Shown: positions 972 to 64,000 of the stretch, piece after piece
Numbering within the stretch: position 1 is the stretch's first letter
Layout: each line of letters starts with the position of its first letter
Notes under the pieces: generated by a model
Told to the model about the DNA's origin: nothing
The model's database searches: none
The model's input: the letters and a program-made list of their open reading frames with translations, nothing else
Virus record (IMG/VR): IMGVR_UViG_2706795421_000001
Location: 22,247 to 86,246 of that record
DNA: 64,000 nucleotides
Strand: one strand, 5' to 3'
Origin: a virus
Taxonomy: Duplodnaviria > Heunggongvirae > Uroviricota > Caudoviricetes
Made by a program: the position numbers and the translations under genes

Positions 972-1000
972 TTGACAAACTAAAAAATTTATAGTAATAT
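972..1000 (+). promoter_or_regulatory. sigma70-like promoter (TTGACA-N17-TAATAT) in AT-rich island, divergent from the minus promoter
   Basis: ttgaca at 972-977, 17-nt spacer, taatat at 995-1000. Local GC is about 25%. Confidence 0.4.
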
Positions 1001-1025
1001 TATTAAATATATTATATATAATATA

Positions 1026-1059
1026 CAAGGGAGGGAGTGGGCAAGTGCCCCCTCCCTTG
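1026..1059. other. nested GC-rich hairpin (outer stem AAGGGAGGG/CCCTCCCTT, inner GGGCA-AG-TGCCC); second copy at 63084..63115
   Basis: Perfect inverted repeats. No U-tract follows, so it is unlikely to be a simple terminator. Confidence 0.6.
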
Positions 1060-1102
1060 TACTAAGTATATAATTAATATTAATTACTATAGGTTAATTT
1101 TT

Positions 1103-1279
1103 ATGAGATGTAAAGGATGTAATAGGATAATTAAATATCCTAGTAAGAATTCAGTTTCAGGAAAGCATGAGGACCTATGCTCCCTGTGTCAAGGCCGTGC
1201 CAGGATGGTAGGCCCTCCTGAGGACTATGCATTCCCTCACGTCAAGCAGGGGTTGACACCAGTACGCAAGTGTGACTAG
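1103..1279 (+). CDS. small Cys-rich protein (CxxC...CxxC), questionable
   Basis: ATG at 1103 (MRCKGCNR...SLCQGR...). No clear SD. Lies in the AT-rich island. Confidence 0.25.
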   Translation: MRCKGCNRIIKYPSKNSVSGKHEDLCSLCQGRARMVGPPEDYAFPHVKQGLTPVRKCD

Positions 1280-10996: not shown

Positions 10997-11441
10997 TTTT
11001 CGAAAGCTAGATGCTCTGATTGCCCGGATGGAAGCCTTGGATGGCATGGCACTAGAAGGGGGCTTCTTTCCCGAAGACCGGTATGGCCCAGAGAACGGTA
11101 ACCTACCAGTCGCCCAGGTAGCAGCCTACAACGTTTTCGGAACGGAAACGAACCCGGAACGCGACTTCATGACTCCCAGCTTCAGTGATTGGGCCACGGT
11201 GAACTACTACCGGAAAGCCATGAAGCAGGTGGTTGAAGCTACCATCCGAGATGGGCGGACCCAGAAGGGTCAGCTCAACAAGATGGGCCGCACCATGGTG
11301 GAGATTATCCAGGTCAACATTGACGACTTCCCAGGCCACAACAGCGCTCGTTGGGCCCAGGTGAAAGGCTTTGACGACCCTCTGACCCATACGGGCAAGA
11401 TGCAGGATAGCGTCAAGTACAAGATCGTGAGGAGGAAGTGA
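10974..11441 (+). CDS. hypothetical virion morphogenesis protein (155 aa)
   Basis: Overlaps the upstream gene by 23 nt. Structural-module position. Confidence 0.45.
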   Translation: MPSRVSADFRKLDALIARMEALDGMALEGGFFPEDRYGPENGNLPVAQVAAYNVFGTETNPERDFMTPSFSDWATVNYYRKAMKQVVEATIRDGRTQKGQLNKMGRTMVEIIQVNIDDFPGHNSARWAQVKGFDDPLTHTGKMQDSVKYKIVRRK

Positions 11442-21454: not shown

Positions 21455-22921
21455 ATGGCTGGATTGACTGACAAAGGGCTGGAAATCCGGTACCTTCCTG
21501 AGGTACTGGAGCAGTACCACAACCGTGCTCAAGACATCTTCTCTGACGAAGTTGAGCCTGGCGATGTAGTGGATACCAGTGAGAACTCAGCCCTGGGCCG
21601 AATGATCGGCGTTGTGGCACCAAGCGTAGCTGAACTGTGGGAAGCACTGCAAGAGGTTCATGACAGTTTCAACCCCAACGTGGCAACAGGCTACGCTCTG
21701 GATAACGAAGTCGCCCTGTCCGGTATCATCCGGTATGCCGAAGAGCCCACCAGGGCTCAGGTGGTGTTTGAGGGCAACTACAACATCGTGGTCAGCTCCG
21801 TAGGCTCTGTCTCCTCTAGCGTCACTCTGAGGCAGTTCCGGGTGATTACCCCGGTCCTGATGAACCTCCAACAGGCTTCAGGGGTAGCCTGGAGGGTTAC
21901 GGCAGTAGAAGCGGGTCATGAGTACAAGATTGGCTACTCGACCGATGGTGGCAGTAACTTCGTGTACGCCACTTACACTGCAACCGCCACAGATACAGCA
22001 GCGTCGATTCAGACTATGCTGGGCCAGAGAGTTTCTCAGTCGTGGACCAGCTTCGAAACACAGACTGATGCAAAGAACAACTACAACTGGGCACGTCGCC
22101 GGAATCGTCTCCAGATTGTCCACTTCGACTTGGACCCTCGTATCACTCCGATCAAGGTGGCGAAGCCTGGGGTGGTAGAGGATACCCAGATGGGGCCCTC
22201 GACTCAACTGCCCGGAACGATTGACACAATCTCGGTTCCGATCCTGGGCTGGGATTCGGTGTACAACCCCACCAACGCAGTATCTGGCAGGTTCCGGGAA
22301 ACGGATGTGGAACTCCGGGAACGGTGGAGGAACTCGAAGTTCTATCAGGCAGCGGCGATCTTGGAAGCGATGCTGGATGGTATGCACCAGGTTCCAGGGG
22401 TACGAGACGTAACCATCATCGAGAACGATACCAACAATCATGACTCGGTGCATAACGTCCCGCCCCACGCCTTCACGGTGATCACCCATGGAGGTGATGA
22501 TTCCGACATCGGGAAGATGATTTGGCAGAAGAAACCCACAGGCATCCAAGCCTACGGCGACACGGTGGTGCAGATCGCTGACTCCCAGGGCAAGGTTCAC
22601 TCCATCGGGTTCCGACGAGCCGAGGAATTGGAAGTACAGGTAAACCTGAACATCTCGGCTATTGCAGGGCAGGTTCTGCCAGGCGATGTGAAGGAACAGG
22701 TTACTGCTGCCATTCTGGCGTATCAAGATGGACTGGACAAAATCGGTAAAGAGGTGGTATACTCTAGACTATACACTCCAATTAACAGTGTTCCAGGGTT
22801 CCAGGTTAACAGCCTGACCATTGGAAAGAAAGGGGGCACCCAGGCCATGGCGAACATCCCTGTGGGGTACGACGAAGTGGCTATTTTCGATGCCACCCGT
22901 ATTGCAATTACGGTGACCTGA
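21455..22921 (+). CDS. baseplate J-like protein (488 aa)
   Basis: taaATG overlap. Position after W. Confidence 0.65.
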   Translation: MAGLTDKGLEIRYLPEVLEQYHNRAQDIFSDEVEPGDVVDTSENSALGRMIGVVAPSVAELWEALQEVHDSFNPNVATGYALDNEVALSGIIRYAEEPTRAQVVFEGNYNIVVSSVGSVSSSVTLRQFRVITPVLMNLQQASGVAWRVTAVEAGHEYKIGYSTDGGSNFVYATYTATATDTAASIQTMLGQRVSQSWTSFETQTDAKNNYNWARRRNRLQIVHFDLDPRITPIKVAKPGVVEDTQMGPSTQLPGTIDTISVPILGWDSVYNPTNAVSGRFRETDVELRERWRNSKFYQAAAILEAMLDGMHQVPGVRDVTIIENDTNNHDSVHNVPPHAFTVITHGGDDSDIGKMIWQKKPTGIQAYGDTVVQIADSQGKVHSIGFRRAEELEVQVNLNISAIAGQVLPGDVKEQVTAAILAYQDGLDKIGKEVVYSRLYTPINSVPGFQVNSLTIGKKGGTQAMANIPVGYDEVAIFDATRIAITVT

Positions 22922-26189: not shown

Positions 26190-27683
26190 ATGCCGCTTCC
26201 AAAACCTGATGATTTGTCCGTAATCTGGGCATCCATTGGGCAGGCCACCAAACCTGCTCCAAACAAGATCATGACGGGCTGGACCAACGAAATCCCCCCG
26301 TACCAGTGGCACAACTGGTACTTCCAGAGGGTAGACAAGGCTCTAGCACACATTAACCAACAAGGCATTGCCATGTGGGATGCCGCGTCCACCTACGAAG
26401 GCGGTACCAGTCTGGCCAAAGGCTCCGATGGGGTGGTATACAAAGCCAAACGGTCCAGCCGGGGAGTTGATCCTGTAGCTCTGGCAAGCAACCTAGACTG
26501 GGAGCCTGCGTTCGAGCGGTACGGCGAGGCTGAGAAAGTCAACATCCAGCTCCAAGCTTTGAAAAAGGACTACGAAACCCTGGCCAACGTCAGCAACATC
26601 GCCATGGCCAGGCAAAACCTAGCAGTGTACTCGAAGTCTGAAGGGGATGTTCGCTACGCCTACAAAGCTGGTGCAGCCGGGCAGGTGTTTGCAGTTGCCC
26701 CCGCTACCGCAGGTAATCATGCCGTACCGAGGGATCAACTGCCAGCCCTGTACCCCCGCGCAGGGGCAGCTCCTGGTATCATCGCAGTGGCGAGCCAAGC
26801 TGAAGGGTTGGCCGGAACCCCAGAGAACAAGGCTATCCCTCCAAGTGTACTGAAAGCGCTTACCCTGTACAAGAATCAGAACCTGGCAGACCTTCCCGAT
26901 AAGCAAGTTGCTCGGGCGAACCTGGGCCTGGCCAGCTCTGCTGTGTTGCCGGAGAACACCTGGTTGAAGCGTACTGCCAACCTGGCAGACGTTGCGGACA
27001 AAGCAGCAGCTCGGGCCAACCTGGGCATTACGTCTTCGGCTCTTCTCCCGGAGAACACCTGGTTGAAGTCCGCCAGCAATCTGGCGGATGTACCCAACAA
27101 GTCGGCAGCTCGGGCCAACCTTGGTATTACCGACACTGCCACGCTGCCAGTTGGCGATGTGATGCGTAAGAGTCAGAACCTGGCAGGTTTGACCAACGTC
27201 CCTCAAGCTCGGGCCAACCTGGGCCTCGGAACAATGGCAACTGCCAACTCCGGAGACTTCCTCACCTCGGCGAACAACCTGAGTGATGTGAGGGACGCAC
27301 AGGCAGCCCGGAACAACCTGGGCTTGAAAGGATGTGCTACTCTGGACGCTCTGGGTCTACCTAACGGAGCAACTGGCCTAGACTTCCAATCGGAACAGTC
27401 TTCCAGTGCATCTGGCTGGGCAGCTCTACCGAACGGGCTAGTGCTTCAGTGGGGCCAAGGGCCTGCACTGTACGATGATCGGTCTACGATTGTCCGACTG
27501 CCACGCCAGGCTCGAATCCTGAACGTGAGCGTAACTGTGATGGGGACTTTCAACGCCTCTATCGGGCCGGGCGCCTACATGACGGACCAGTGGAGTAACA
27601 CCCAGTTCCGTGTGTCGTGCAACTGGGGCAACTGGGCGTATCCCTTCTGCTGGTTCGCTATCACCACCATCTACGGGATGTAG
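26190..27683 (+). CDS. tail fiber protein with tandem approx 37-aa repeats (ARANLGL...NLADV motif x5)
   Basis: GAGG RBS. Repeated KxxARANLG(L/I)..S..LPENTWLK units. Matching nucleotide direct repeats at about 26880-27330. Confidence 0.6.
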   Translation: MPLPKPDDLSVIWASIGQATKPAPNKIMTGWTNEIPPYQWHNWYFQRVDKALAHINQQGIAMWDAASTYEGGTSLAKGSDGVVYKAKRSSRGVDPVALASNLDWEPAFERYGEAEKVNIQLQALKKDYETLANVSNIAMARQNLAVYSKSEGDVRYAYKAGAAGQVFAVAPATAGNHAVPRDQLPALYPRAGAAPGIIAVASQAEGLAGTPENKAIPPSVLKALTLYKNQNLADLPDKQVARANLGLASSAVLPENTWLKRTANLADVADKAAARANLGITSSALLPENTWLKSASNLADVPNKSAARANLGITDTATLPVGDVMRKSQNLAGLTNVPQARANLGLGTMATANSGDFLTSANNLSDVRDAQAARNNLGLKGCATLDALGLPNGATGLDFQSEQSSSASGWAALPNGLVLQWGQGPALYDDRSTIVRLPRQARILNVSVTVMGTFNASIGPGAYMTDQWSNTQFRVSCNWGNWAYPFCWFAITTIYGM

Positions 27684-50426: not shown

Positions 50427-51446
50427 GTGAGCGTATTTGTTGAAAGCACCAGTTACCGTCCCTTTGTGTACCCCTGGGCAGTCGAGGCAGCTCGTGTCCA
50501 CGCCATCGATATGCACTGGGATGTTCACCAGGCAGACCTGACAGACGACAAACAGCAGTATTTCAGCACCTCTGGTCTGGGCACCAACCAGGTCCCCCAC
50601 GAGAACCATAAGTGGCTGCTGGACAAAACTCTGTCCATGTTCACCGAGATGGACCGGACAGTCGGCGAGGGTTATACCAAGCTCCTCCCGTACATCAAGA
50701 ACAACGAGATTCGAAACTGGCTCATCACTGCGGCTTCTCGTGAGGTGGTTCACCAGCGAGCCTATGCCCTGGCAGCCGAGGAGTTCGGGTTCACCGATGG
50801 CGATTGGAAAGCTTTTGCCTCCTATAAGGAGATGCGAGACAAGCTGGAGGTGATGGGAGAGAACCGTATCGATACAAGTTGGTCCGAGCCCCTTCAAGCT
50901 GCCTGTATCCTGGCCCAGCTTCTGACAGGTGAAGGTGTCGGCCTGTTCGGTGCCTTTACCGTGCTGCTGAACATGAAGCGCTGTGGCAAGCTGATCGGGT
51001 TCAACGACATCAACCAGTGGAGCCTGGCGGATGAGACCGACCACGTGGAGAAGAACATCCGCGTCCTGAAGGCCATGCGTAAGGACCTGACCCCAGAAGA
51101 GAACGCCATCCTGGACCAGGAAATCCGATACCTGATCGAGGACTATCGAGAGGCCGAGGTCAAGTATCTGGTCCTGGCCTTCGAGAAGGGCCCCCAGCAC
51201 GATCTGACCTTCGAGCAGACTGTTGAGTACATCGACTACCTGTGCCGCCTCCGACTGTTCGAATGCGAGCTTCTCAAGGAGCACCAGGTAGGAGAGAACC
51301 CGTTGCCCTGGATGGAGTGGATGATCAACGCTGCCCGGCACGACAACTTCTTCGAGAAGAAGGTGACGGACTACAGCCACTCCAAGCTGAGCGGTGACGT
51401 GGATTACTCCAAGTACAATTTCATGTTGACTAGCCGATCTGGTTGA
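50427..51446 (+). CDS. nrdB: ribonucleotide reductase small subunit (ferritin-like di-iron R2)
   Basis: GTG start after AAGGAGAG. Motifs EVVHQRAY and ADETDHVEKN, the E/H iron ligands. Confidence 0.75.
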   Translation: MSVFVESTSYRPFVYPWAVEAARVHAIDMHWDVHQADLTDDKQQYFSTSGLGTNQVPHENHKWLLDKTLSMFTEMDRTVGEGYTKLLPYIKNNEIRNWLITAASREVVHQRAYALAAEEFGFTDGDWKAFASYKEMRDKLEVMGENRIDTSWSEPLQAACILAQLLTGEGVGLFGAFTVLLNMKRCGKLIGFNDINQWSLADETDHVEKNIRVLKAMRKDLTPEENAILDQEIRYLIEDYREAEVKYLVLAFEKGPQHDLTFEQTVEYIDYLCRLRLFECELLKEHQVGENPLPWMEWMINAARHDNFFEKKVTDYSHSKLSGDVDYSKYNFMLTSRSG

Positions 51447-53980: not shown

Positions 53981-54009
53981 CTGAGCCCTCAACCACCTTT
54001 GGAGGATTT

Positions 54010-54507
54010 ATGAACACTGCTCAAACCGTCGCAGACATCCTGATTCACCTCGCTGACCGTCTGTACACTCAGAAGGGTCGATGCCTCATCGACGGGCGCT
54101 GCAACTATGTAGATGGCCAGGGAAATCACTGTGCTGTTGGGCACCTCCTAAGCTCCCAGTCGTGGGAGTTCGCTTCCAAGTGCCACGGCGGCGTGCCATC
54201 CCTGGAGAACGACTGGGCGCGGCGTAAAGATGGAAGTGTGGAGACTCTCTATGACGAGAAGTTCTTCATCGCAGACATCGGTGTTCGCCGCCGTCTGTTG
54301 GACTCTTTGCAGTTCTACCATGATGAGCCGTCTATGTACTGGACAGTGGCTAAAAGCCCGTCATTCTCAAAGGTAAGCCTCCTGTTGTCTATGGTGGATT
54401 TCCTGAACACTCAAGGCCTGGACTTTGTTGAGCGCCCCCAATCTAGTGTTAAGGGCTTCTGGTCGGAAGCTAAAGGAATTCTTCGCAATCGGGGGTACCA
54501 CGTATGA
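54010..54507 (+). CDS. hypothetical protein (165 aa)
   Basis: GGAGG RBS. Confidence 0.45.
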   Translation: MNTAQTVADILIHLADRLYTQKGRCLIDGRCNYVDGQGNHCAVGHLLSSQSWEFASKCHGGVPSLENDWARRKDGSVETLYDEKFFIADIGVRRRLLDSLQFYHDEPSMYWTVAKSPSFSKVSLLLSMVDFLNTQGLDFVERPQSSVKGFWSEAKGILRNRGYHV

Positions 54508-54983
54508 ACAAGGCTCTCCTTCTGAAAGACCAGTTGGCAGCAGCCCTACGATGTGAAGACCATACCCTGCAAGGTGTTGTCAGTTCTATCGTGTTCGGCC
54601 CTGCCCAGGGGCTTGATCATAACGGTATTGCGATCCGTGGGCCGGGGCTTCTAAGTGATCACCGGGAACTGGTACAGCGAGCCGACAGGGTATGGATGAA
54701 CATCGCCTACCGTCGAGCAGGTTTGCTAGTCAACATGAACGGCTTTACCCGGTCTGTGGTAGATGTGTTTATTCTCAAAGACAGGTATCACGGGCTGACA
54801 GGGTTGAGGTCCGTGGGTGTGGGGGAGGGATGGGCAAATGCCCTGGCCATCGACTGTGCCCTGCTGAAGAAGCAGTTCGAAGTTATTGTCGAAATCCCTT
54901 ACCAGTACGAGGGGTGGGCAACCGACCTGGTACGGGCAGGTGAGATTCCTGAAGGTGTGACCATCATGTCCTCGGGGGTGTAG
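54504..54983 (+). CDS. hypothetical protein (159 aa)
   Basis: ATGA overlap with the upstream stop. Confidence 0.45.
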   Translation: MNKALLLKDQLAAALRCEDHTLQGVVSSIVFGPAQGLDHNGIAIRGPGLLSDHRELVQRADRVWMNIAYRRAGLLVNMNGFTRSVVDVFILKDRYHGLTGLRSVGVGEGWANALAIDCALLKKQFEVIVEIPYQYEGWATDLVRAGEIPEGVTIMSSGV

Positions 54984-55051
54984 ATATTTGAGGGGCTGGG
55001 GATATTTGCTCTAGATATTTGGGTGGCCCCCTATTTCGAGCTAGATATTTG
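54981..55051. repeat. iteron-like array A: three copies of TAGATATTTG(R)GGG at about 30-31 bp spacing, plus a fourth GATATTTG
   Basis: Copies at 54981, 55012 and 55042, with GATATTTG at 55001. Noncoding. Confidence 0.55.
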
Positions 55052-55154
55052 AAGGGGCCTCCCAGCCTCGCTATCACATTTTTAAGCCGGCCCCTGACTC
55101 ACGGCCTAGGTTAGGGGAAAAATCGTCTCCTAGGCCCCTCAGAGGAGCTTACAA

Positions 55155-55367
55155 GTGCATATCAACATCACGCTTACAGTCGGTCCTGAGATTCGTTGTA
55201 AGAAGTGCGACTGCCCCACCCCTGCCCGGGATATCGTAGAAGGCCTCTGCCCTTCCTGCCGGACACTCAAGGCCTGGGAGGCGCTCGGGCAGGCTGCTCA
55301 AGAGCTGTGGGCTTCCACTTTCAAGAGCGTCAAGATCGATTCCGTTCGGCTTGAGCAAGGTACCTGA
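55155..55367 (+). CDS. small Zn-finger-like protein (70 aa, CxxC-x16-CxxC), GTG start, flanked by two iteron arrays
   Basis: GAGGAG upstream. Contains CKKCDC...CPSC. Confidence 0.45.
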   Translation: MHINITLTVGPEIRCKKCDCPTPARDIVEGLCPSCRTLKAWEALGQAAQELWASTFKSVKIDSVRLEQGT

Positions 55368-55443
55368 CAGATTTTCACAGCCGGGCGTAAGGTACTCGAC
55401 AGATTTTCACCGAGCGCCCAAGGTACTCGACAGATTTTTACAG
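55359..55443. repeat. iteron-like array B: three 22-bp direct repeats GGTACYYGACAGATTTT(C/T)AC at 31-32 bp spacing
   Basis: Copies at 55359, 55391 and 55422. The first overlaps the stop codon of the 55155 ORF. Confidence 0.6.
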
Positions 55444-55504
55444 AGACAGGTATCAAAAGAACTGTCAAGTTTCCCTCCCCAGGCGGCCCGACCCCTCGGC
55501 CTCT

Positions 55505-55544
55505 TGTAGCACGTCAACTTCCCGCTGTAGCACGTCACTCCCCC
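55505..55544. repeat. two direct repeats TGTAGCACGTCA(A/C)T(T/C)CCC
   Basis: Copies at 55505 and 55526. Confidence 0.4.
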
Positions 55545-55812
55545 GGTAAGTAGCTCCCTATCTATCCCTCCCTCACCGAAACTACCTTTCACATGCAATC
55601 ACCATGCCAACCTTGAAAAGCGCGCAGGGGCGGTGTTTGTCTCCGGCGCCCGGCCCCTCCGGCCTGCTTTCCCGCATGCCTACAGAATGCCAGGATGAGC
55701 CTGGAGTGTCAAGCCTTGGGCCAGGATTTTTCATCGCCGACCTGGCATGCTCTTTGCTACGCTTGCGCGTTCCTCTACCTGGCGTTGCCGGAGCAATTTC
55801 TTAAAAAAGGGG

Positions 55813-55840
55813 GTTGACTTCTAACCGTGCCACCGTAGAA
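55813..55840 (+). promoter_or_regulatory. sigma70-like early promoter TTGACT-N16-TAGAAT
   Basis: Consensus elements at 55813 and 55835. Confidence 0.6.
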
Positions 55841-55880
55841 TGACCCTCAAGCAAGGCAAACAACCTGTAGGAAGGTAACC

Positions 55881-56180
55881 ATGCAAAAAGCTCTCTGCAA
55901 TCAACGTGACCTGTACGCTGCCTATAACCGTGGCGAGTATGACCGCGTGGCCGTAGACCTGAATCGGTACTTCCCTATCGAACGGGACAACCAATGGGAA
56001 GACGGAGATGCTAACCTTCGTCGCCGCACCTATCTGGTGAAGCACTCGAAGGGCGTGGCCAGGTGGCACACTCTCTATCGTAATGGCCAGGTTCACGGCG
56101 TCGGCGTTATCTTCGACGTGAAACCAGATGAACCCTGGCAGTATCTCCAACGTAAAGCCGGGTCGAGTCCTTCCGCATAG
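55881..56180 (+). CDS. hypothetical early protein (99 aa)
   Basis: GGAAGG RBS. Sits downstream of the promoter. Confidence 0.5.
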   Translation: MQKALCNQRDLYAAYNRGEYDRVAVDLNRYFPIERDNQWEDGDANLRRRTYLVKHSKGVARWHTLYRNGQVHGVGVIFDVKPDEPWQYLQRKAGSSPSA

Positions 56181-56196
56181 CTTGAGGAGATGCAAG

Positions 56197-56340
56197 ATGC
56201 AAGCCTGGAACGTATTCCTTAACGGCCAATTGATCGATACTGTTTTCTTCGACGTGATGGCGGATACCGAAGAGGTTCGGAAATCGTTGATCAATCACGA
56301 CGGGTACCACTCTGACATTGTTGTAAAGGAGGCACAGTGA
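56197..56340 (+). CDS. small early ORF (47 aa)
   Basis: GAGGAG sits 7 nt before the ATG at 56197. Confidence 0.4.
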   Translation: MQAWNVFLNGQLIDTVFFDVMADTEEVRKSLINHDGYHSDIVVKEAQ

Positions 56341-56573
56341 TGCCCATCAAGGTAGGGGATATCGTAGCCATCCGGGGCGACCTTCGGAAAAAGCTCGACG
56401 GAACGTGCCAGTATCTGCCTGAACAGCTAGTGGACGGTAAATTCCTCAAGCATACCGGCACGGGAGAAATGTGGACTGGCCAGGTGGAACGTGTCCAGGG
56501 TGATATGGCCAAGGTAGGCGGGGGCTGGCGCGGAATTGAATCCTATGTGCCAGTCAGTGAAATAAACGCTTGA
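56337..56573 (+). CDS. hypothetical early protein (78 aa)
   Basis: GTGATG overlap with the upstream stop. Confidence 0.45.
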   Translation: MMPIKVGDIVAIRGDLRKKLDGTCQYLPEQLVDGKFLKHTGTGEMWTGQVERVQGDMAKVGGGWRGIESYVPVSEINA

Positions 56574-56598
56574 CAACCTGGCTAACCGTCCGCACAAT
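56570..56598 (+). promoter_or_regulatory. sigma70-like promoter TTGACA-N17-CACAAT
   Basis: Elements at 56570 and 56593. Confidence 0.45.
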
Positions 56599-56631
56599 AG
56601 CACTCACTAACACCAACAGAGGTAACACACA

Positions 56632-56835
56632 ATGCAAATTCATTTCTCCTCCCGCCCCGCAGCCCGTGCTTTCGTGAAGGGTTCTGCCGTACCTCGCCAG
56701 GTTGCTGATAACGGCGCTGAAGCCTCTCGCCGCTGGGGCGTCAAGCTGAGTATCTCGCCGTGCGTTCGCGTGTTGGGTTGTGATCACTTCGCCACTGGCA
56801 AGACTGGCAACATGGTGCCGGTTTACATCAAGTAA
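56632..56835 (+). CDS. hypothetical early protein (67 aa)
   Basis: ORF lies downstream of the promoter. Confidence 0.4.
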   Translation: MQIHFSSRPAARAFVKGSAVPRQVADNGAEASRRWGVKLSISPCVRVLGCDHFATGKTGNMVPVYIK

Positions 56836-56910
56836 CGTCAGAGTGCTTTTAGGGTTGCCCCTGGACGCCGGGGGCAGCTTGCCTAAATCCACTCCTGAGG
56901 AGAACACACG

Positions 56911-57459
56911 ATGAACATTGCTCAAAAAACCCTCCTGGCTTTCGCTCTGGTCACTCCCCTGGCCGTGGCAACCGGCGCAATGATCGGCAAGGCCGTTGCC
57001 CTGCCCCCTGCCCTGGAAGCTCAAGCTATGAGCCTGAAGGCTGAACACGCCAAGGATGTGGCAGACAACTATGTCCCCAAAATGAACATCATCCATACCG
57101 CTACAGGCGCCATCGAGTTGGGCCAAGTGTTCGGTGATCGCTTGGCGGGGAAGGTTGAAATGATCGTCAGGGGCAAGGTGCTGGCCAGCACTCATATCAA
57201 CGGTCGTAGTGTTCAGCAAGCCCTGGAAGAGGCGGCGGGCGGGACTATCGAAGACCGCGTACTGAATAAAGATGTCACTTTCCGAATCACCATGGATCGC
57301 CTGTACCAGTCCGAAAACTTCCCTCAGTTTACGGTGGTGATGCTCAATTCCTACGTCTATGGCAAGGACGGGGACAGCATGACAGCCCTGGCCGCCCGCC
57401 TGGAAAAACAGCGCCTGGCAACTGTGAAGATGTTCGAAGAAACTCGAATCCTGAAATAA
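56911..57459 (+). CDS. secreted/periplasmic early protein (182 aa, signal peptide)
   Basis: GAGGAG RBS. Signal peptide MNIAQKTLLAFALVTPLAVATGAMIG. Confidence 0.5.
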   Translation: MNIAQKTLLAFALVTPLAVATGAMIGKAVALPPALEAQAMSLKAEHAKDVADNYVPKMNIIHTATGAIELGQVFGDRLAGKVEMIVRGKVLASTHINGRSVQQALEEAAGGTIEDRVLNKDVTFRITMDRLYQSENFPQFTVVMLNSYVYGKDGDSMTALAARLEKQRLATVKMFEETRILK

Positions 57460-57463
57460 AGTG

Positions 57464-57491
57464 TTGACACGGAATCTCGTGTCTGTAGAAT
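57464..57491 (+). promoter_or_regulatory. sigma70-like early promoter TTGACA-N16-TAGAAT (with AATAAAGTG upstream box)
   Basis: aataaagtgttgacac...tgtagaat. The same upstream box recurs at 60052. Confidence 0.6.
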
Positions 57492-57540
57492 AGGCATCAC
57501 AGAGGGGGACGGTCCCCCTCCTCCTAAAAGGAAAGCTTGC

Positions 57541-57942
57541 ATGACCACTCTCGATCCTAAAGTTCTGGCACGTCAAGGCATGATCAAGGAAGCTGTTCAA
57601 GCTTTCAAAGATATGGGCGTAGACTCCCCCCCCTGGAATGCTGAGAATGTGGCAACATTCCGAAACTACGATGTCACCTTGGGCGAGGTAGACTTGTCTG
57701 AAGAGGAGTTTGTGGAAGAGTTGGATTCTATCCACGAAGCGATTAAGATCGGAAACATCTCCTTCTCTGCCGGTCAAGTGCTGCTCAAACTGGACCCTGT
57801 AGCCTTCCGTTGTGCATGCGGGGAGTATGAGTCTCAGTTGGACGCAGAGCTTGAGGAGGCACTGCAACACGAAGATGACGATTGTATCGAATTCTTCGTC
57901 GATCCTGCCGATTGGGGAGAGGTGGAAGAAGAGGAAGAATAA
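57541..57942 (+). CDS. hypothetical acidic early protein (133 aa)
   Basis: AAAGGAAAG RBS. C-terminus is EEVEEEEE. Confidence 0.5.
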   Translation: MTTLDPKVLARQGMIKEAVQAFKDMGVDSPPWNAENVATFRNYDVTLGEVDLSEEEFVEELDSIHEAIKIGNISFSAGQVLLKLDPVAFRCACGEYESQLDAELEEALQHEDDDCIEFFVDPADWGEVEEEEE

Positions 57943-57945
57943 GGG

Positions 57946-57974
57946 TTGACAAGGGGCCAGGAAACTCCTAAACT
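57946..57974 (+). promoter_or_regulatory. sigma70-like promoter TTGACA-N17-TAAACT
   Basis: Elements at 57946 and 57969. Confidence 0.4.
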
Positions 57975-58008
57975 GGCCCCAACACCAACGAACTGAGGGT
58001 AACACAAC

Positions 58009-58398
58009 ATGGTCAAGTTCGAAGAGATTGCACAGCGTTTCAAGAATTCCCAACGCCGCTGGGACAAGCCAGGCGTCATGGCTGCCATGCAAGAGGCGGT
58101 CAATAACGCCCCCGTCAAGGTGGTGGTAGAGTCCACCAGCAAGGCGCTCAAGCCGGACACTCCTACCGTTCGGATCATCGTCCGGAAGTGGATCAAAGCT
58201 CGGCTCGGCGAGGAGTTCACCGTGTACGATATCATCCCCTACGTCCACCACCTGGCCACCCCCAGTGACGTGAACAACGCCCTCAAGCATTGGAAATTGC
58301 AAGGCGTGCAAATCCCCACCATTCGCCAGCAGCAGCGGGAAGCGGGGAAAGCTGGCCGTCCTATCAACGTGTATCGTTGCGATGAGTTCGCAGCCTGA
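58009..58398 (+). CDS. hypothetical early protein (129 aa)
   Basis: GAGGG RBS. Confidence 0.5.
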   Translation: MVKFEEIAQRFKNSQRRWDKPGVMAAMQEAVNNAPVKVVVESTSKALKPDTPTVRIIVRKWIKARLGEEFTVYDIIPYVHHLATPSDVNNALKHWKLQGVQIPTIRQQQREAGKAGRPINVYRCDEFAA

Positions 58399-58422
58399 CC
58401 TTTCACTCTGAGGAGATATATC

Positions 58423-58536
58423 ATGCGTACTGACAAATCCGGCGCCCGTTCCGAACGTAAAGAAGCCATCAAGGCGAGCCGTGAGCTTCTTTACGTTCGG
58501 AAGAACAAGCGGAAACAATGGGTCAGTAAGGATTGA
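58423..58536 (+). CDS. small basic ORF (37 aa)
   Basis: GAGGAG sits 8 nt before the ATG. A terminator-like hairpin follows. Confidence 0.3.
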   Translation: MRTDKSGARSERKEAIKASRELLYVRKNKRKQWVSKD

Positions 58537-58560
58537 CCTGGCGCCGGGGGCGCCTTCCCT

Positions 58561-58585
58561 AAACCCTGGACATTCTCCAGGGTTT
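58561..58585 (+). terminator. hairpin terminator candidate
   Basis: AAACCCTGGACATTCTCCAGGGTTT. Confidence 0.45.
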
Positions 58586-58756
58586 ACGAAAGATGCTCTA
58601 AATGATACACTGCAACCCCACATTTGAGGTTTAATCATGGTCATTGAATGTTGTCCTGGACCCGTAGAGTATTGCTTTTCCCTGGCGCTGTGCCTGGCTA
58701 AGGCTGGGGTTAAAGTGAAACTGTTCCGAACCGGTAAAGAGTGGGGAGTGATTCCG

Positions 58757-59148
58757 TGCCGAGACGTTTAAGAGCCATTCCGACCTGGGTATCTGGGGGA
58801 GATGAAGAAGACACCCCGCGCAAGCCTGTCCTTTCAGTGATAGACCGGGCTTGCCCTATTCAACGGAAGTTAAATGCCCTGGACCGAGATTGCGAGGAGT
58901 TACGGCGCAAGCAAGATACCCTAGAGCCTGCCACTTTTGACCAACTGGCCAATAGCCTGGAAGAGCGGCGGCAAGCCTTGTGGAAGGCCTTTGAATCCAA
59001 GTACGGCGCAGAGCCTGAAGAGGACAGCCACGACACCATCAAGGCCCTGGCTGACGCCAGTATTCAGCCCGCGCAACATGTGGACAGCGGGGCATTGCTG
59101 TTGTTGGGCTTAGCGGCGGTACTCTTCGCCGCCTGGCTGTTCAAATAA
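58757..59148 (+). CDS. hypothetical protein with C-terminal TM anchor (about 130 aa, GTG start; alternative GTG at 58741)
   Basis: GGGGAG sits 8 nt before the GTG at 58757. C-terminal LLLLGLAAVLFAAWLFK. Confidence 0.35.
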
Positions 59149-59163
59149 AAGATCAAAAAGGGC

Positions 59164-59192
59164 TTGACGTGCGCAACGGATGGCCCTAGCAT
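59164..59192 (+). promoter_or_regulatory. sigma70-like promoter TTGACG-N17-TAGCAT
   Basis: Elements at 59164 and 59187. Confidence 0.5.
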
Positions 59193-59236
59193 CTCTCTCA
59201 TAAACACAAACCCTTACTTACAAGGTAGATCGAAAC

Positions 59237-59500
59237 ATGAATACCAATGCAAACCCCGCGCAAACCCTTACTCCCGCCGACGCTTTGGAAGCGGTGGAAC
59301 TTCTGATGATCCTGGGAATCGAGGCGTACCAATCCGGTGCATGGTTGAATGAAAGTGATTCAACTGTTCAGGTTACTGACAGCGCTATTGCGTTGTGGAG
59401 CAGCACTCTTAACCGCTACAAGCTGCTGGACCTGGCACGGACGTTTGCTGAAGAAGCCAGCTTGTTAGAACTTCAAATCAAAGCCCGGGAGGTTTGCTAA
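59237..59500 (+). CDS. hypothetical early protein (87 aa)
   Basis: ORF lies downstream of the promoter. Confidence 0.45.
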   Translation: MNTNANPAQTLTPADALEAVELLMILGIEAYQSGAWLNESDSTVQVTDSAIALWSSTLNRYKLLDLARTFAEEASLLELQIKAREVC

Positions 59501-59736
59501 TGATCAGTCTCGTTCTCACTCTCTGCACTGCCCTGGCATGTGATGATTATGTGATCGCGCAAGACAGCGATGCTGACATCATCAATCACACCCTGTACGT
59601 TGAATCTGAAGAGTTAGGCGATGCCTGGGTGGCCCCTAACGCCAACGACCGCATTGGCCGCTACCTGGCACGGTTCAACATCTCCACTCCCCCGGCTATG
59701 GTAGTGGACTACGACTACACTGTGGAGGGTAACTGA
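59494..59736 (+). CDS. hypothetical early protein (80 aa)
   Basis: Overlaps the upstream gene by 7 nt. Confidence 0.45.
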   Translation: MLMISLVLTLCTALACDDYVIAQDSDADIINHTLYVESEELGDAWVAPNANDRIGRYLARFNISTPPAMVVDYDYTVEGN

Positions 59737-59737
59737 A

Positions 59738-60016
59738 ATGCATTGGAACATTCTCGACGATGTACGCGCCAGCCTGGCAATGGTTTTCCTGTTCGAAGCG
59801 GTCCATGATGTGGCTGCCTGGACCCTGCTAGGCCATAAGCATGGCTTTGCCATTGAAGACGTGGCCGCCCTGTCCGCCGAGTTCTACCTACCTCTGACGG
59901 AAGTATTCCAAGCCCTGGAGGAAGCATCTGGCGATGTGGAAGAGGTAAGGGAAACCCTGCAACAGGCCGCCGCAAGTCGATTAGTCGATGACTCCCTGGA
60001 CTACTACAGTCGCTAA
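59738..60016 (+). CDS. hypothetical early protein (92 aa)
   Basis: TGAAATG junction. A terminator follows. Confidence 0.45.
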   Translation: MHWNILDDVRASLAMVFLFEAVHDVAAWTLLGHKHGFAIEDVAALSAEFYLPLTEVFQALEEASGDVEEVRETLQQAAASRLVDDSLDYYSR

Positions 60017-60019
60017 CAC

Positions 60020-60048
60020 CAGCCCCGCTCATGCGGGGCTTTTGTTTG
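60020..60048 (+). terminator. rho-independent terminator
   Basis: CAGCCCCGCTCATGCGGGGCTTTTGTTTG. Confidence 0.65.
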
Positions 60049-60060
60049 CCTGAAATAAAG

Positions 60061-60088
60061 TGTTGACACTATAGGCCCTTCCTGTAGA
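60061..60088 (+). promoter_or_regulatory. sigma70-like early promoter TTGACA-N16-TAGAAT
   Basis: aataaagtgttgacac...ctgtagaat. Confidence 0.6.
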
Positions 60089-60139
60089 ATGGCCGCCATA
60101 CACAAGGAAAATGTTCCACAACATCCTCTGGAGATAATC

Positions 60140-60271
60140 ATGCGTTCGATCAAATCCCTCGCACGAGAAGCCTACAAAAACCGCTATGCGTTTGCACGTG
60201 TAACCGTTGCCCGTGATGGAAATATGCTCGGGCATTGGGCCGGAGTTCGAACCCCTTCTTTTCACGTCTAA
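60140..60271 (+). CDS. small ORF (43 aa); may be the 5' part of a gene completed in the +1 frame
   Basis: GGAG RBS before the ATG at 60140. The frame closes at 60271 while the +1 frame continues to 60413. Confidence 0.3.
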   Translation: MRSIKSLAREAYKNRYAFARVTVARDGNMLGHWAGVRTPSFHV

Positions 60272-60413
60272 GAGTCTTGCTGTTCAATACGCCAAGCAAA
60301 TCATCAAGCACGGAAAAGCGCACGACGTTTTCCCACCCTTTACGCCTGTTATCGAGACCCGTCACAAGGCGGATATGCACCGGTTCACCGTCCACGACAA
60401 AATCCCTGAATAA
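60207..60413 (+). CDS. ORF (68 aa) overlapping the previous one in +1 frame; possible frameshift partner
   Basis: No RBS of its own. Fills the space up to the next promoter. Confidence 0.3.
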   Translation: MPVMEICSGIGPEFEPLLFTSKSLAVQYAKQIIKHGKAHDVFPPFTPVIETRHKADMHRFTVHDKIPE

Positions 60414-60425
60414 AAGCTTGACTTC

Positions 60426-60453
60426 CCTCCCGCTTCCCGTAGAATAGGCTTCA
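60426..60453 (+). promoter_or_regulatory. sigma70-like early promoter TTGACT-N16-TAGAAT
   Basis: Elements at 60426 and 60448. Confidence 0.6.
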
Positions 60454-60488
60454 AAGGGCAAGGGCCCTCTTTCATAAAGGTGACACAA

Positions 60489-61034
60489 ATGAAAAATATC
60501 GAACTGAACATCGGCGGCAAAGACTTCACTTTCAAGGTGGAGGTGGTGAGAGATGATGAGCATGGGGCGCCTTGGGAAGAGCAAGATGGGCATGGCCCTG
60601 TGAGCGATTGGACCTGTCGAGATAAGCGCCCTGGCGAGTTAGTCTTGAACAGTGACGGAGCCAGGAAGCGTTTCTATGACTTCTCCGAGGCCTGCCGGAT
60701 TGCCCTCCGTGATGGTTGGGATTCTTATCCTCACAACCTCTTTGGCGAGCAATCCAAACGCCAGCAAGCTGCAAAGGCAGCCCGTGCCGACTTCGAATAT
60801 CTTCGCGCATGGTGCCAGGATGAATGGTATTGGGTAGGGATTATCGTCACTTTGCTGGACGAAGATGGGAATAAAACGGACATCCGCGACTCTTTGTGGG
60901 GACTGTCCAGTAACGATGAAGACGGCATAGCTTATGAGGCTGGAATCATCGCCGATGACCTGGCAAGGGGTTATGACGTCCGTTGGGGCGAGGTCGTAAA
61001 AAAAATACGTATGAATTCTTCTAAAATCGCTTGA
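60489..61034 (+). CDS. hypothetical early protein (181 aa)
   Basis: AAAGG sits 8 nt before the ATG at 60489. The track starts at the GTG at 60480. Confidence 0.5.
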   Translation: MKNIELNIGGKDFTFKVEVVRDDEHGAPWEEQDGHGPVSDWTCRDKRPGELVLNSDGARKRFYDFSEACRIALRDGWDSYPHNLFGEQSKRQQAAKAARADFEYLRAWCQDEWYWVGIIVTLLDEDGNKTDIRDSLWGLSSNDEDGIAYEAGIIADDLARGYDVRWGEVVKKIRMNSSKIA

Positions 61035-61058
61035 CAGTCTAGGCCATTCGCGTAGAAT
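61031..61058 (+). promoter_or_regulatory. sigma70-like early promoter TTGACA-N16-TAGAAT
   Basis: Elements at 61031 and 61053. Confidence 0.6.
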
Positions 61059-61110
61059 GGCCCTCAAGCAAGACAAACCGCCGACAGGCAAAACCTCAAG
61101 GAACTAAGCC

Positions 61111-61626
61111 ATGACTACCGAAAACCTTTCCTCTCAAGAAATTGAAACCGCCGTTGACGAATTCCTGAAGTCAATCGACGTTACCCTGGCCACCGTGTGC
61201 CGAGGTGAGCGCAACAGTGAAGGTTGGGTGCATGACCTGTGGGATGTAAGCCTCATCCGTGGTGATGGACGCCCTGGAGTTCTCGACACTGAATTCCGCA
61301 CTGGCGTGGGGCATCGCAGAACTACAGTCCCCATGCCGTTTGAGATACGTCGTCTGGCTCCGAACATTCTGGCACGGGTGGAGTGGGAAAAACGTTACCT
61401 CAAACCTGTAGCGCCTAAGGCTGCCTGTATCCTGTCCAACCTTATCCTCGACTGCGATGTCGGTGGTCACACCTTCGAAGAGTTCTGCTGCGACTTAGGT
61501 TATGACACAGATAGCCGGAAGGCCTTGGACACTTACATGGCGTGTCAAGAGACTACATCCAAGCTTCGCCGATTCTTCTCTCAGGAAGAGATCGAAACCC
61601 TCCGCCGACTGGTCGAGCATTACTGA
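61111..61626 (+). CDS. hypothetical early protein (171 aa)
   Basis: Sits downstream of the promoter and is followed by a terminator. Contains the 29-bp repeat copy 1. Confidence 0.5.
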   Translation: MTTENLSSQEIETAVDEFLKSIDVTLATVCRGERNSEGWVHDLWDVSLIRGDGRPGVLDTEFRTGVGHRRTTVPMPFEIRRLAPNILARVEWEKRYLKPVAPKAACILSNLILDCDVGGHTFEEFCCDLGYDTDSRKALDTYMACQETTSKLRRFFSQEEIETLRRLVEHY

Positions 61627-61660
61627 AAACCGAGCCCCCGTAATGGGGGCTTTCTTTTTC
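61626..61660 (+). terminator. rho-independent terminator
   Basis: AAAACCGAGCCCCCGTAATGGGGGCTTTCTTTTTCC. Confidence 0.65.
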
Positions 61661-61669
61661 CTAAAAGGC

Positions 61670-61697
61670 TTGACCTGGCTACCGCTTCCTGTAGAAT
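61670..61697 (+). promoter_or_regulatory. sigma70-like early promoter TTGACC-N16-TAGAAT
   Basis: Elements at 61670 and 61692. A leader of about 180 nt without ORF follows. Confidence 0.6.
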
Positions 61698-62673: not shown

Positions 62674-62880
62674 CTGAGCAGCCCCTTCGTCCCCTATGCC
62701 TCAGTGCCAGAGCCTATGTTTGAATTCGAATGGTTCGACGTAGGGAATGCCGTCATCGAGCTAGAGCCAGGATGGCTAGTAGGGGTCGGGTTTGGAGTGG
62801 ATAGCTTATTTGTGCTCACCTACGTCGAAAAGGAACCATTCGCCGAGTGGCTGCCCTGGACCCCCAACCTGAGGTCATAG
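62662..62880 (+). CDS. hypothetical protein (72 aa)
   Basis: Overlaps the upstream gene by 12 nt. Last gene before the repeat-dense noncoding region. Confidence 0.45.
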   Translation: MTGDLSSPFVPYASVPEPMFEFEWFDVGNAVIELEPGWLVGVGFGVDSLFVLTYVEKEPFAEWLPWTPNLRS

Positions 62881-64000
62881 ACTCCTATTCGGTGTGACTA
62901 GGTTTCTATTCGGTCGCCATAATAATGACCCTGGGGAGGGTCCTACGGACCGTCACGATAACAGGGGAATTATGGCCATGTTAACAGGGCCTAGAGGCTT
63001 CTACGAAGCCAGTTTAGCCTAGGCAGTACCCTAGGATGGGAATGGCCTTGAAAAGGCCGTATGCGCGCCCCCAGGGGGCCTATCGGGGAGGGAGTGGGCA
63101 AGTGCCCCCTCCCCGTGTCTAAGCCTTACCAACTGGACTCTACGAGTCTATTTCAACAGGCTTCTACGAAGCCATATGATCACCAGGCATAACACCAATC
63201 ATGCGCAGAGCATCCGGGTAGGATGTTCAAGCCATTGGTCCCTCCTCTCTGTCAAGAATTCTGTAACATTCACTAGGTCACGTCGTGACCCATTGTGTAA
63301 CAGTCAGCAGACTGTCATTCGGGCAGGGGCATTTGCCCCCTTCCTGCCCTCCTAAACTGACTGGCTTCGTCGAAGCCTTCCCATGCCACCAGCCCGATTA
63401 TGTAACAGCCTGGCCATGACCATGGCCCATTGTGTAACGGCATTGCATGCCAGGATCACCAGACAGCCTCAGCCAGGGCAATTGTGTAACCATTCCCCAT
63501 CCCAGCAGCAGAATATCCCCAGCCAGGAAGCCCATGACCACCCCCATTGCATCTCAGGTGATCAGCCCCTGGAATACGGCCATTGTGTAACGGAACACAG
63601 GGACACCAATGCCTACCCATGCCCTAGTAGGCTTCTTCGAAGCGAGCTAATGCCGGCGTCTCTCTACCCTAACGGGAAGAGTTCCCCCTTTATTATGGCG
63701 ACCGAATAGAGAATGCCCGGTTCATGCGGCCTGTAGGCCATTACAATGGCCAGCCATGGGAAGGATTGCATTACACAATAGGCTTGCCCTCACCCATGAA
63801 TTGACAGGCCTCTACGAGGCTAGCCAGGCTCAGCTAGTGAGCTTGAGTTACACAATTCATCCTCACATATTGCCCCACTCCCCATGCCACACCCCTGACA
63901 TTCAACCCCATGCCCCAGCTTCAGCAGATACATTTGCTTCGACGAAGCCTGGATATTTCCAGATCATGACGGCGCCTCATGGCCACCCTAGGGTCTTGTT
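62881..64000. repeat. 1.1-kb noncoding region dense in short repeats and palindromes (candidate ori/pac/regulatory hub)
   Basis: No ORF with an RBS. CATTGTGTAAC occurs 4 times forward (63291, 63428, 63480, 63581) and twice reversed (63769, 63848). Six or more GGCTTCnnnGAAGCC palindromes. 14-16 bp palindromes GGTCACGtCGTGACC, GGCCATGacCATGGCC and GGCCATTacAATGGCC. A 20-bp inverted repeat CTATTCGGTCGCCATAATAA (62911) pairs with TTATTATGGCGACCGAATAG (63683). Confidence 0.6.
63084..63115. other. second copy of the nested hairpin (CGGGGAGGG-AGT-GGGCA-AG-TGCCC-C-CCTCCCCG)
   Basis: The 28-nt core is identical to 1029..1056. Outer stem ends differ in a base-pair-preserving way. Confidence 0.6.

Follow-up and report, generated by a model that had tools for sequence, protein, structure and literature searches.

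What do two arrays of phased direct repeats do on either side of a small CxxC protein gene in a Pseudomonas phage genome? The question is raised by a locus of about 1 kb in a 64,000-nt stretch of viral DNA (IMG/VR record IMGVR_UViG_2706795421_000001, positions 22,247 to 86,246; hereafter the window). At 100% identity, the window corresponds to the final 64 kb of Pseudomonas phage vB_PaeM_PAO1_Ab03 (LN610573, 86,246 bp, genus Nankokuvirus); Ab03 record positions are window positions plus 22,246, and the orientation of the record is the physical one. The original prediction took this locus, here called the module, for a replication origin or a master regulatory switch at the start of the early region, with the small protein (open reading frame 136, ORF136) as a candidate iteron-binding factor. 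Comparison across phage genera and published data for the close relative PAK_P3 (92.5% identity across this region) lead us to favour, tentatively, a different reading, namely that the module is a conserved, protein-bound transcription boundary and loop anchor of Nankokuvirus and related Pseudomonas myophages.

Repeat motifs are conserved across phage genera

Arrays A and B and the TGTAGCACGTCA pair (motif C) are present where they had been described, and repeat finding, Tandem Repeats Finder (TRF) and chance expectations agree that they are non-random. The spacing of 30–32 bp reported for the arrays was recovered as 31 and 30 bp in array A (repeat finding and TRF) and as 32 and 31 bp in array B (TRF period 31, 2.9 copies, score 115). 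All four window copies of the array A core GATATTTG fall within array A, against 0.94 expected in 64 kb; window copies of the array B motif are likewise confined to the locus (chance expectation 0.70), as are the only two copies of motif C (0.19 expected). At the scale of the complete genome (86,246 bp), motifs B and C remain exclusive to the locus, and GATATTTG has one stray copy.

The 1-kb region finds matches in 41 Nankokuvirus records at 92.5–100% identity. Within-genus variability was assessed in an alignment of six representative Nankokuviruses, where array A has 3.8% variable sites (3 sites only), array B 3.4% and motif C 3.0%, versus 10–16% in the spacers, ORF136 and the end of ORF135; the repeats are thus 3–4 times less variable than neighbouring sequence. 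Conservation in relatives, which the original prediction had named as a check, also extends over several Pseudomonas phage genera. The motifs recur, with order and genomic position kept, in phages for which no further DNA similarity to this 1-kb region was detectable, these lineages being Pakpunavirus, Otagovirus, Flaumdravirus, Boevelstad-type phages and metagenomic contigs. The repeats, the selection on them and their cross-genus conservation are in this sense directly visible in the genomes.

Units related to array A (ATATTTGGnnGGCaCCC / AAGGTTTGGnGGCaCCC) hold their position in Boevelstad and in metagenome contig L256. In Boevelstad (P. poae) three ATATTTGGnnGGCaCCC are followed by an unrelated 81-aa ORF, three TACTCGACAGnTTTTCA at 33/31-bp spacing, a non-coding stretch of ~350 bp and then a promoter, TTGACA-N17-TAGAAT; directly after array B, both Boevelstad and phage 254 carry an AT-rich TATATATAGA stretch. 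The Otagovirus module (psageK4e, UNO-G1W1, PPSC2) consists of five or six CTTACTTTTG, a different small CxxC ORF and three CTCGAYAGATTTTYAC at 22/28 bp, together with a TGTAGCACGTCA box, inverted or reversed, and a strong promoter. Pakpunavirus PAK_P1 has four or five ACTGGAYAGATTTTYA plus three GTTAGCAnnCTA, with a variant of the array B core and a spacing of 18/34/19; Flaumdravirus KIL2 and phage 254 show partial versions of the module. Metagenome contigs L256, L308, L310 and L342 contain AAGGTCTCGACAGATTTTYA three or four times, GATAGgtAGCTAA repeats and a 20-mer, GCAGGGGCGGTGaTTGTCTC, that equals window 55624–55643 with one mismatch and keeps its placement relative to array B. The array B core CTCGACAGATTTTYAC is retained in Boevelstad, phage 254, Otagovirus, Flaumdravirus, PAK_P1 (as the variant) and the metagenome contigs, and the motif C 12-mer follows array B with 0–1 mismatch in psageK4e, KIL2, UNO-G1W1 and PPSC2, in varying orientation.

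Across genera, motifs and their order are kept, and spacers, spacing and the intervening ORF differ. The phasing of about 31 bp noted originally holds for Nankokuvirus and Boevelstad only, and not for Otagovirus or PAK_P1. Because the ORF between the arrays is unrelated in each lineage, the repeats are, judged from the sequences, old and selected cis-elements independent of ORF136. Most plausibly the arrays are putative protein-binding sites; the change of motif C orientation between genera fits a protein-binding site and does not fit an RNA hairpin.

As to how relatives were found, a strict array B pattern returned only KPP10 from IMG/VR. Loose patterns for array A (IMG/VR) and array B (genome and metagenome collections) gave mostly chance matches, and filtering the loose metagenome array B matches recovered several genuine relatives. 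The same searches brought up metagenome contigs L260, L279, L307 and L343 (Ga0268261 and others) with 30-bp-period satellites whose units lie at most 2 mismatches from the 16-nt array B core, a resemblance that the search pattern itself probably selected for.

The gene between the arrays is not a likely repeat binder

ORF136 is a real gene, as originally proposed, and its TGA stop does sit in array B copy 1: 33 of its sites vary among the six Nankokuviruses, 24 of them in the third position of a codon, all four Cys are invariant, and its PAK_P3 homologue gp80 is transcribed, weakly and by read-through, within transcription unit TU050. Its proposed role as iteron binder fared worse. The arrays elsewhere flank unrelated ORFs or none (phrog_11927, phrog_18044, phrog_8175 or none, by lineage, all mutually unrelated), and no homologue of ORF136 was found outside the genus. 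A resemblance to the small CxxC protein of Otagovirus was rejected as homology (E 0.038 over 11 residues, different PHROGs). ORF134–136 match no Pfam family. A single-sequence AlphaFold model of ORF136 gives a generic fold, a zinc-ribbon core at residues 11–40 (predicted local distance difference test, pLDDT, ~89) followed by a helix, with no match in the PDB at E ≤ 0.001. Nothing observed links ORF136 to the repeats, and the co-occurrence test speaks against it as the protein that would recognise them.

Transcription stops, pauses and restarts around the arrays

Transcript evidence comes from PAK_P3, by ONT-cappable-seq (ONT, Oxford Nanopore Technologies) of LB-grown (lysogeny broth) infections and by early RNA-seq. 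Units starting at P031 and P032 end at T021 and T022, two 3′ ends that the PAK_P3 paper classed as non-intrinsic. T021 (50,279) corresponds to window ~55075, a few bases past the array A hairpin, and T022 (50,625) to window ~55422, the 3′ foot of the hairpin at array B copy 2; the longest read-through ends at 50,872, or window ~55669. The ONT-cappable-seq table holds no transcription start site (TSS) on either strand between 48,439 and 51,049, and the first one past the gap is P035 at 51,049, a sigma-70 promoter before gp81 whose window equivalent is 55814–55841. Early RNA-seq counts drop from 125,969 for gp78 to 37,572 for gp79 and 4,958 for gp80, then jump to 115,448 for gp81. In PAK_P3, then, both 3′ ends are observed directly, as are the silent gap and the promoter, and given these 3′ ends, the TSS-free interval and the drop and jump in counts, we read the locus as a layered transcription stop followed by a silent gap of ~420 bp and a restart.

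A scan of 54000–57000 for intrinsic terminators found none, the hairpins that exist having their U run displaced or absent. The array B hairpin is the better fold, equalled by 3 of 200 shuffles. The stretch downstream was originally described as 250 bp of GC-rich DNA, which is right for a 68–70% GC tract in its later part and not for its first part (55460–55610), C-rich but G-poor with a skew reaching −0.67. With the longest PAK_P3 read-through mapping to ~55669, this first part is a candidate rho-utilisation (rut) site.

The restart is marked in Ab03 by the first of five near-identical promoters (A-tract, TTGAC-N17-TAGAAT) at 55806, 57456, 60055, 61023 and 61662, against 0.01 expected, and all five window copies lie within 55806–61697, between the module and the right direct terminal repeat (DTR). 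Tandem phage promoters inside the module were considered and rejected, because no TSS occurs there in PAK_P3. The boundary separates an upstream early operon, ending with ORF134–136, from a promoter-dense terminal block running from ORF137 to the right DTR. In PAK_P3, the early region covers gp74–gp112, the terminus being the sole untranscribed 'gene'; as defined by RNA-seq, the early region of the genus begins ~3 kb upstream of the module, at gp74, so the module does not mark its start as had been supposed. What holds of the proposed regulatory switch is the placement: the arrays sit at a regulatory boundary, and the first of the five strong early promoters comes immediately after them; the origin that was offered with it finds no such backing.

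A candidate boundary and loop anchor

Hi-C of PAK_P3 infections (Bignaud et al., Sci Adv 2026, PMC13510664) showed that by 3 min a 14-kb early-gene region forms a loose loop or hairpin and 'isolates itself'. The anchors of this early loop are the terminus and a second gene-free, untranscribed sequence ~14 kb off, and the authors proposed a factor resembling nucleoid-associated proteins (NAP), possibly carried in the virion (PMC13510664). Between 45 and 75 kb of PAK_P3 only two gene-free gaps exceed 300 bp, gp80–gp81 (510 bp) and gp112–gp114 (the DTR, 921 bp), 12.5 kb apart. Since the module is thereby the sole gene-free gap of this length besides the DTR in that interval, it is probably the internal loop anchor.

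The right DTR of Ab03, the presumed partner anchor, is gene-free and bears eight ATTGTGTAAC copies, six direct and two inverted; the DTR of PAK_P3 has the same motif set and is untranscribed. In Ab03, module and right DTR are 7.4–8.2 kb apart. A genome terminus or packaging (pac) site at the module was rejected on this distance, the DTR being 7.4 kb off, and the termini of PAK_P3 were placed at 62,771–63,516, away from its module.

We infer from these data protein binding of the repeats, identity of the module with the Hi-C anchor, and insulation or looping caused by the binding. One or more sequence-specific DNA-binding factors other than ORF136 would occupy the repeat units; the assembly of protein and DNA would act as an insulator between the two transcription units. 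In the first few minutes after infection it would also be the internal anchor making contact with the DNA terminus, so that the terminal early genes come to lie within a loop. Read from left to right, the C-rich tract is followed by ~250 bp of transcription-free DNA with the two sigma-54-type elements and the 20-mer, and then by the sigma-70 promoter.

Several points weigh against this picture. The text of the Hi-C paper is without coordinates, the match to the anchor is our own, and 12.5 kb is not exactly 14 kb. Hi-C borders can also form passively beside a highly transcribed unit, with no anchor protein, and RNA hairpins alone could account for both 3′ ends. The module and the Nankokuvirus DTR have no clear common motif: k-mer sharing in PAK_P3 is weak (one 13-mer, P ~0.03) and a shared module/DTR motif was rejected. 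Lastly, transcript and Hi-C data all come from PAK_P3 and none from Ab03.

A bolder version of the favoured reading, which we hold to be doubtful, would make the module and the terminal repeat a matched anchor pair. A factor carried in the virion or supplied by the host would sit on arrays A, B and C, tie the DNA end to the module within 3 min of infection and so fold the terminal early block or stage its entry, possibly with sigma-54 holoenzyme parked on the −24/−12 elements. If true, virulent phages would gain their first loop anchor or insulator defined by sequence, one conserved in at least five Pseudomonas myophage genera. PAK_P3-type phages are leading therapeutic candidates whose early programme is well charted at the RNA level, and no cis-element or factor has so far been tied to early genome folding. 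The module gives concrete handles on it: four short conserved motif families and two sigma-54-type elements with exact coordinates (Table 1), in the sole gene-free sequence that fits the internal anchor.

Table 1. Coordinates of the module, its elements and its surroundings (window positions unless another sequence is named; a point marks features without strand).
Feature	Position	Strand	Description
ORF135	54504–54983		module neighbour
Array A	54981–55057	.	three 16-nt direct repeats TAGATATTTG(R)GGGGC at 54981, 55012, 55042; extra GATATTTG at 55001
Array A hairpin	55052–55080	+	GGGGC-CTCCCA-GCCTC + T run; weak, not better than shuffles, z 0.52
ORF136	55155–55367	+	middle of module; 70 aa, GTG start; CxxC...CxxC = C15, C18, C32, C35; zinc-ribbon-like
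Array B	55357–55445	.	three 26-nt direct repeats AAGGTACTCGACAGATTTTYACnG at 55357, 55389, 55420; core CTCGACAGATTTTYAC
Array B hairpin	55380–55423	+	CCGGGCG...CGCCCAAGG; spacers around B copy 2; −17 kcal/mol, z −2.66
C-rich, G-poor tract	55460–55610	+	holds motif C pair; rut-like composition; GC skew −0.35 to −0.67
Motif C	55505–55537	.	TGTAGCACGTCA at 55505 and 55526, 21 bp apart
Sigma-54-type −24/−12 element	55594–55609	−	TGGCATGGTGATTGCA; 1 mismatch (position 6) to TGGCAC-N5-TTGCW
Element E, conserved 20-mer	55624–55643	.	GCAGGGGCGGTGTTTGTCTC; 0–2 mismatches in metagenome contigs L308, L310, L342, L256
Sigma-54-type −24/−12 element	55743–55758	+	TGGCATGCTCTTTGCT; 1 mismatch (position 6) to TGGCAC-N5-TTGCW
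Sigma-70 promoter with A-tract	55806–55848	+	TTGACT-N16-TAGAAT; promoter at 55814–55841, start near 55848; annotated promoter_06
ORF137	55881–56180		module neighbour
DTR, right copy	63230–64000	.	771-bp direct terminal repeat; record 1–771 + 85,476–86,246
Fur-box-like palindromes	L128 1878–1977; L129 1716–1792; L132 1455–1479; L131 1378–1442; L308 2883–3311		L308 positions on reverse complement

Sigma-54-type elements in the silent stretch

Two conserved sigma-54-type −24/−12 elements and the conserved 20-mer in the silent stretch are newly described here. The region is absent from the ISME J 2017 paper on PAK_P3/PAK_P4, and no description of the arrays, their cross-genus conservation or the sigma-54 elements was found in the literature searched. 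Two matches to the sigma-54 consensus fall within 900 bp, against 0.02 expected (P 0.001), both with the invariant GG and GC at their distance of 10 bp. The 16-mers have six sites that vary among Nankokuviruses, four of them in the minus-strand element, and every one is in the spacer or at position 6; in the plus-strand element the variation among relatives is limited to the spacer, and the minus-strand element of PAK_P3 is perfect (TGGCAC-N5-TTGCA). Syntenic matches number three in PAK_P1, all perfect, and one each in Boevelstad (perfect) and phage 254 (a single mismatch), and in each of these phages the minus-strand element has a minus-strand counterpart. The modules of Otagovirus and Flaumdravirus, which keep arrays B and C, have no sigma-54 motif, and ONT-cappable-seq of the LB-grown PAK_P3 infections recorded no TSS at either element. 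The elements may be conditional promoters or holoenzyme parking sites.

The perfect PAK_P1 equivalents stand at positions 11437, 11589 and 11607 of the sequence analysed (L133), and two of them form a palindrome. The DTR region of the same phage (record 67,902–68,836; L133 23903–24837) carries six sigma-54-type matches on both strands, where 0.08 would be expected.

Other observations at the module and in the window

In phage 254 (L127 1553–2098) and KIL2 (L129 930–1355) an AP2/HNH-type endonuclease gene occupies the place between the array A and B positions. The ORF of phage 254, as annotated, extends across units resembling array A; in T5, too, an HNH gene is inserted between repeat regions.

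Several Fur-box-like palindromes (GAGAATCATTCTC / GATAATCATTCTC, 13–16 of 19 positions of the Fur consensus) were seen in Otagovirus, Flaumdravirus and metagenome L308 modules (Table 1), and a search for Fur boxes (GATAATGATAATCATTATC, at least 13/19) found none in the modules of Ab03, PAK_P3, PAK_P1 and Boevelstad. This suggests a possible iron-dependent control in the Otagovirus, Flaumdravirus and L308-type lineages.

Rfam covariance models gave no match up to E 1 in 54500–56500, and a known RNA family or tRNA at the module was rejected, none having matched. In PHB09 (L132 1740–1835) the early promoter and the first module gene are separated by a sequence resembling the 3′ part of a tRNA, GGTTCGAATCC...CACCA. 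Elsewhere in the window, a 99-bp tandem repeat (1.8 copies, 78% matches) spans 26949–27130, within a long plus-strand ORF at 26190–27683.

Alternative readings

The replication origin of the original prediction now appears unlikely. On this reading the arrays would be iterons for a phage initiator, or the silent promoter-like stretch would prime the leading strand; in T7 and T4, origins consist of a promoter and a downstream unwinding element that prime leading-strand synthesis. Three-copy direct repeats at ~31-bp phasing argue for it, Ab03 having the at least three phased direct repeats of an iteron array (31/30; 32/31), and so do the conserved non-coding region with its several repeat families, the AT-rich TATATATAGA right after array B in Boevelstad and phage 254, and a T7-like replisome, a kind able to initiate from transcripts (here a T7 gp4-like primase-helicase with Toprim and DnaB/RecA-like domains, plus a PolA polymerase). 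Yet the lowest GC in 60-nt windows across 54500–56300 of Ab03 is 45%, with no AT-rich unwinding element; no DnaA box (TTATCCACA, at most 1 mismatch) and no IHF site (WATCAANNNNTTR) occurs in 54981–55880; no Rep/O-like initiator was found among the genome proteins, and the primase-helicase has no detected origin-binding domain. Moreover, the phasing is not kept in Otagovirus and PAK_P1, and no transcript starts in the PAK_P3 module. The cumulative GC-skew minimum falls at an AT-rich divergent region near window ~1000, with no module-specific extremum; locating an origin at the module by GC skew was rejected in any case, since skew follows gene orientation. In PAK_P3, the chromosome contact at 3 min precedes replication, which takes place at 7–13 min (PMC13510664). 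The coverage skew in the same Hi-C data implies a single replication start whose position is not stated in the text (PMC13510664), a wording equally compatible with an origin near the record ends; on account of that missing position we keep the origin as an unlikely reading. A better candidate for an origin with a DNA unwinding element (DUE-like) is window 985–1130, extremely AT-rich and with short tandem repeats around a GC hairpin (GGGAGGGAGTGGGCAAGTGCCCCCTCCC) between divergent gene blocks; it coincides with a low-coverage AT-rich region that Essoh et al. had noted. The equation of iterons with an origin fails on most of the features by which iteron origins are recognised.

Quite improbable, in our estimate, is a sigma-54 control region in which the −24/−12 elements are RpoN promoters, one of them firing to the right, in tandem with the sigma-70 promoter, and the other to the left, and the arrays are upstream activating sequences (UAS). 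It would tie early phage expression to host physiology, and it would account for the excess of matches, their synteny in PAK_P1, Boevelstad and phage 254, the sparing of the −24/−12 cores by Nankokuvirus variation, and the PAK_P1 GTTAGCAnnCTA repeats 66–111 bp upstream of the predicted sigma-54 start; enhancer-binding proteins commonly have sites spaced by about three helical turns. PAK_P3 infection also strongly induces one host RNA-processing operon. This may be the RpoN/RtcR-dependent rtc operon. But neither element has a TSS in PAK_P3; in Ab03 the repeats precede the plus-strand element by 240–400 bp, where a UAS would lie about 80–200 bp upstream, and they stand on the downstream side of the conserved minus-strand element; and Otagovirus and Flaumdravirus keep arrays B and C with no sigma-54 motif; nor do we know of any enhancer-binding-protein consensus that fits motif B or C. 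An equally slim chance goes to an RNA-only explanation, with the arrays acting as terminators, structures protecting 3′ ends, or motifs of the 3′ untranslated region (UTR), and no DNA-binding factor. Both PAK_P3 3′ ends do lie a few nt past array-overlapping hairpins, the hairpin at B copy 2 beats shuffles, and the rut-like tract follows downstream. However, what is conserved is the repeat cores and not the stems, which are made of spacers that change from genus to genus; just one B copy out of three is in a hairpin, the array A hairpin folds like its shuffles, motif C is kept in both orientations, and Rfam had no match. Very improbable, finally, is a T5-type injection stop, where a terminal 7.4–12.5-kb block would enter first, transfer would pause at the module and the isolated segment at 3 min would reflect staged entry. 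The T5 injection stop signal (iss) is likewise conserved, untranslated and packed with repeats; it borders a terminal pre-early block on the inner side and its neighbouring ORFs are unconserved. In Ab03 the module is 7.4–8.2 kb from the right DTR. Against this, upstream gp74–gp79 are strongly transcribed by 3.5 min, DnaA boxes are absent from the module, and no genes resembling A1/A2 were identified.

Comparison with known systems

Iteron origins such as P1 oriR, lambda ori and those of the pPS10/RK2 type resemble the module in their 3–4 direct repeats of 16–26 bp, spaced at helical multiples in non-coding DNA beside a small gene. They differ in what the module lacks, an AT-rich element, DnaA/IHF sites and a Rep-like initiator; the small gene is moreover not co-conserved with the repeats, spacing is unconserved in related genera, and the replisome is of T7 type. 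With sigma-54 promoters and their enhancers (Pu/XylR, glnAp2/NtrC) the module shares −24 GG and −12 GC at the exact spacing, consensus flanks, variable spacers and nearby arrays at about three turns, and sigma-54-like promoters have been reported in Pseudomonas phage YuA. Unlike those systems it has no detected start, the distance and orientation between arrays and promoters are atypical, and no enhancer-binding-protein site is recognisable.

The T5 injection stop signal/Repeat Region 3 (Davison, bioRxiv 10.1101/866236) is similarly long and untranslated, with families of direct and inverted repeats whose order is conserved where the flanking ORFs are not, and the module too sits at the inner end of the terminal stretch of earliest genes. 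The module differs in having no paired DnaA boxes, in lying outside the terminal repeat and in the expression of upstream genes by 3.5 min, and two-step transfer is not known for Nankokuvirus-type phages. Motif B (ACAGATTTTCAC), with its central T tract flanked by AC...AC, recalls the box YYNASNNYTTTTTSAC of the OmpR-family regulator ColR of Pseudomonas (PMC2689224). Its T tract is one base shorter (10- versus 11-bp AC-AC period) and 4 of 13 defined positions mismatch, and it was rejected as a ColR box.

The closest parallels to the boundary and loop-anchor reading are Hi-C domain borders in bacteria and the early loop of PAK_P3. Like these, the module is gene-free and untranscribed, flanks a very highly transcribed unit and, as we read the Hi-C text, would coincide with a contact anchor or border. 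Known bacterial borders are mostly passive consequences of transcription, whereas the module has specific and deeply conserved repeat motifs, which suggest a dedicated factor.

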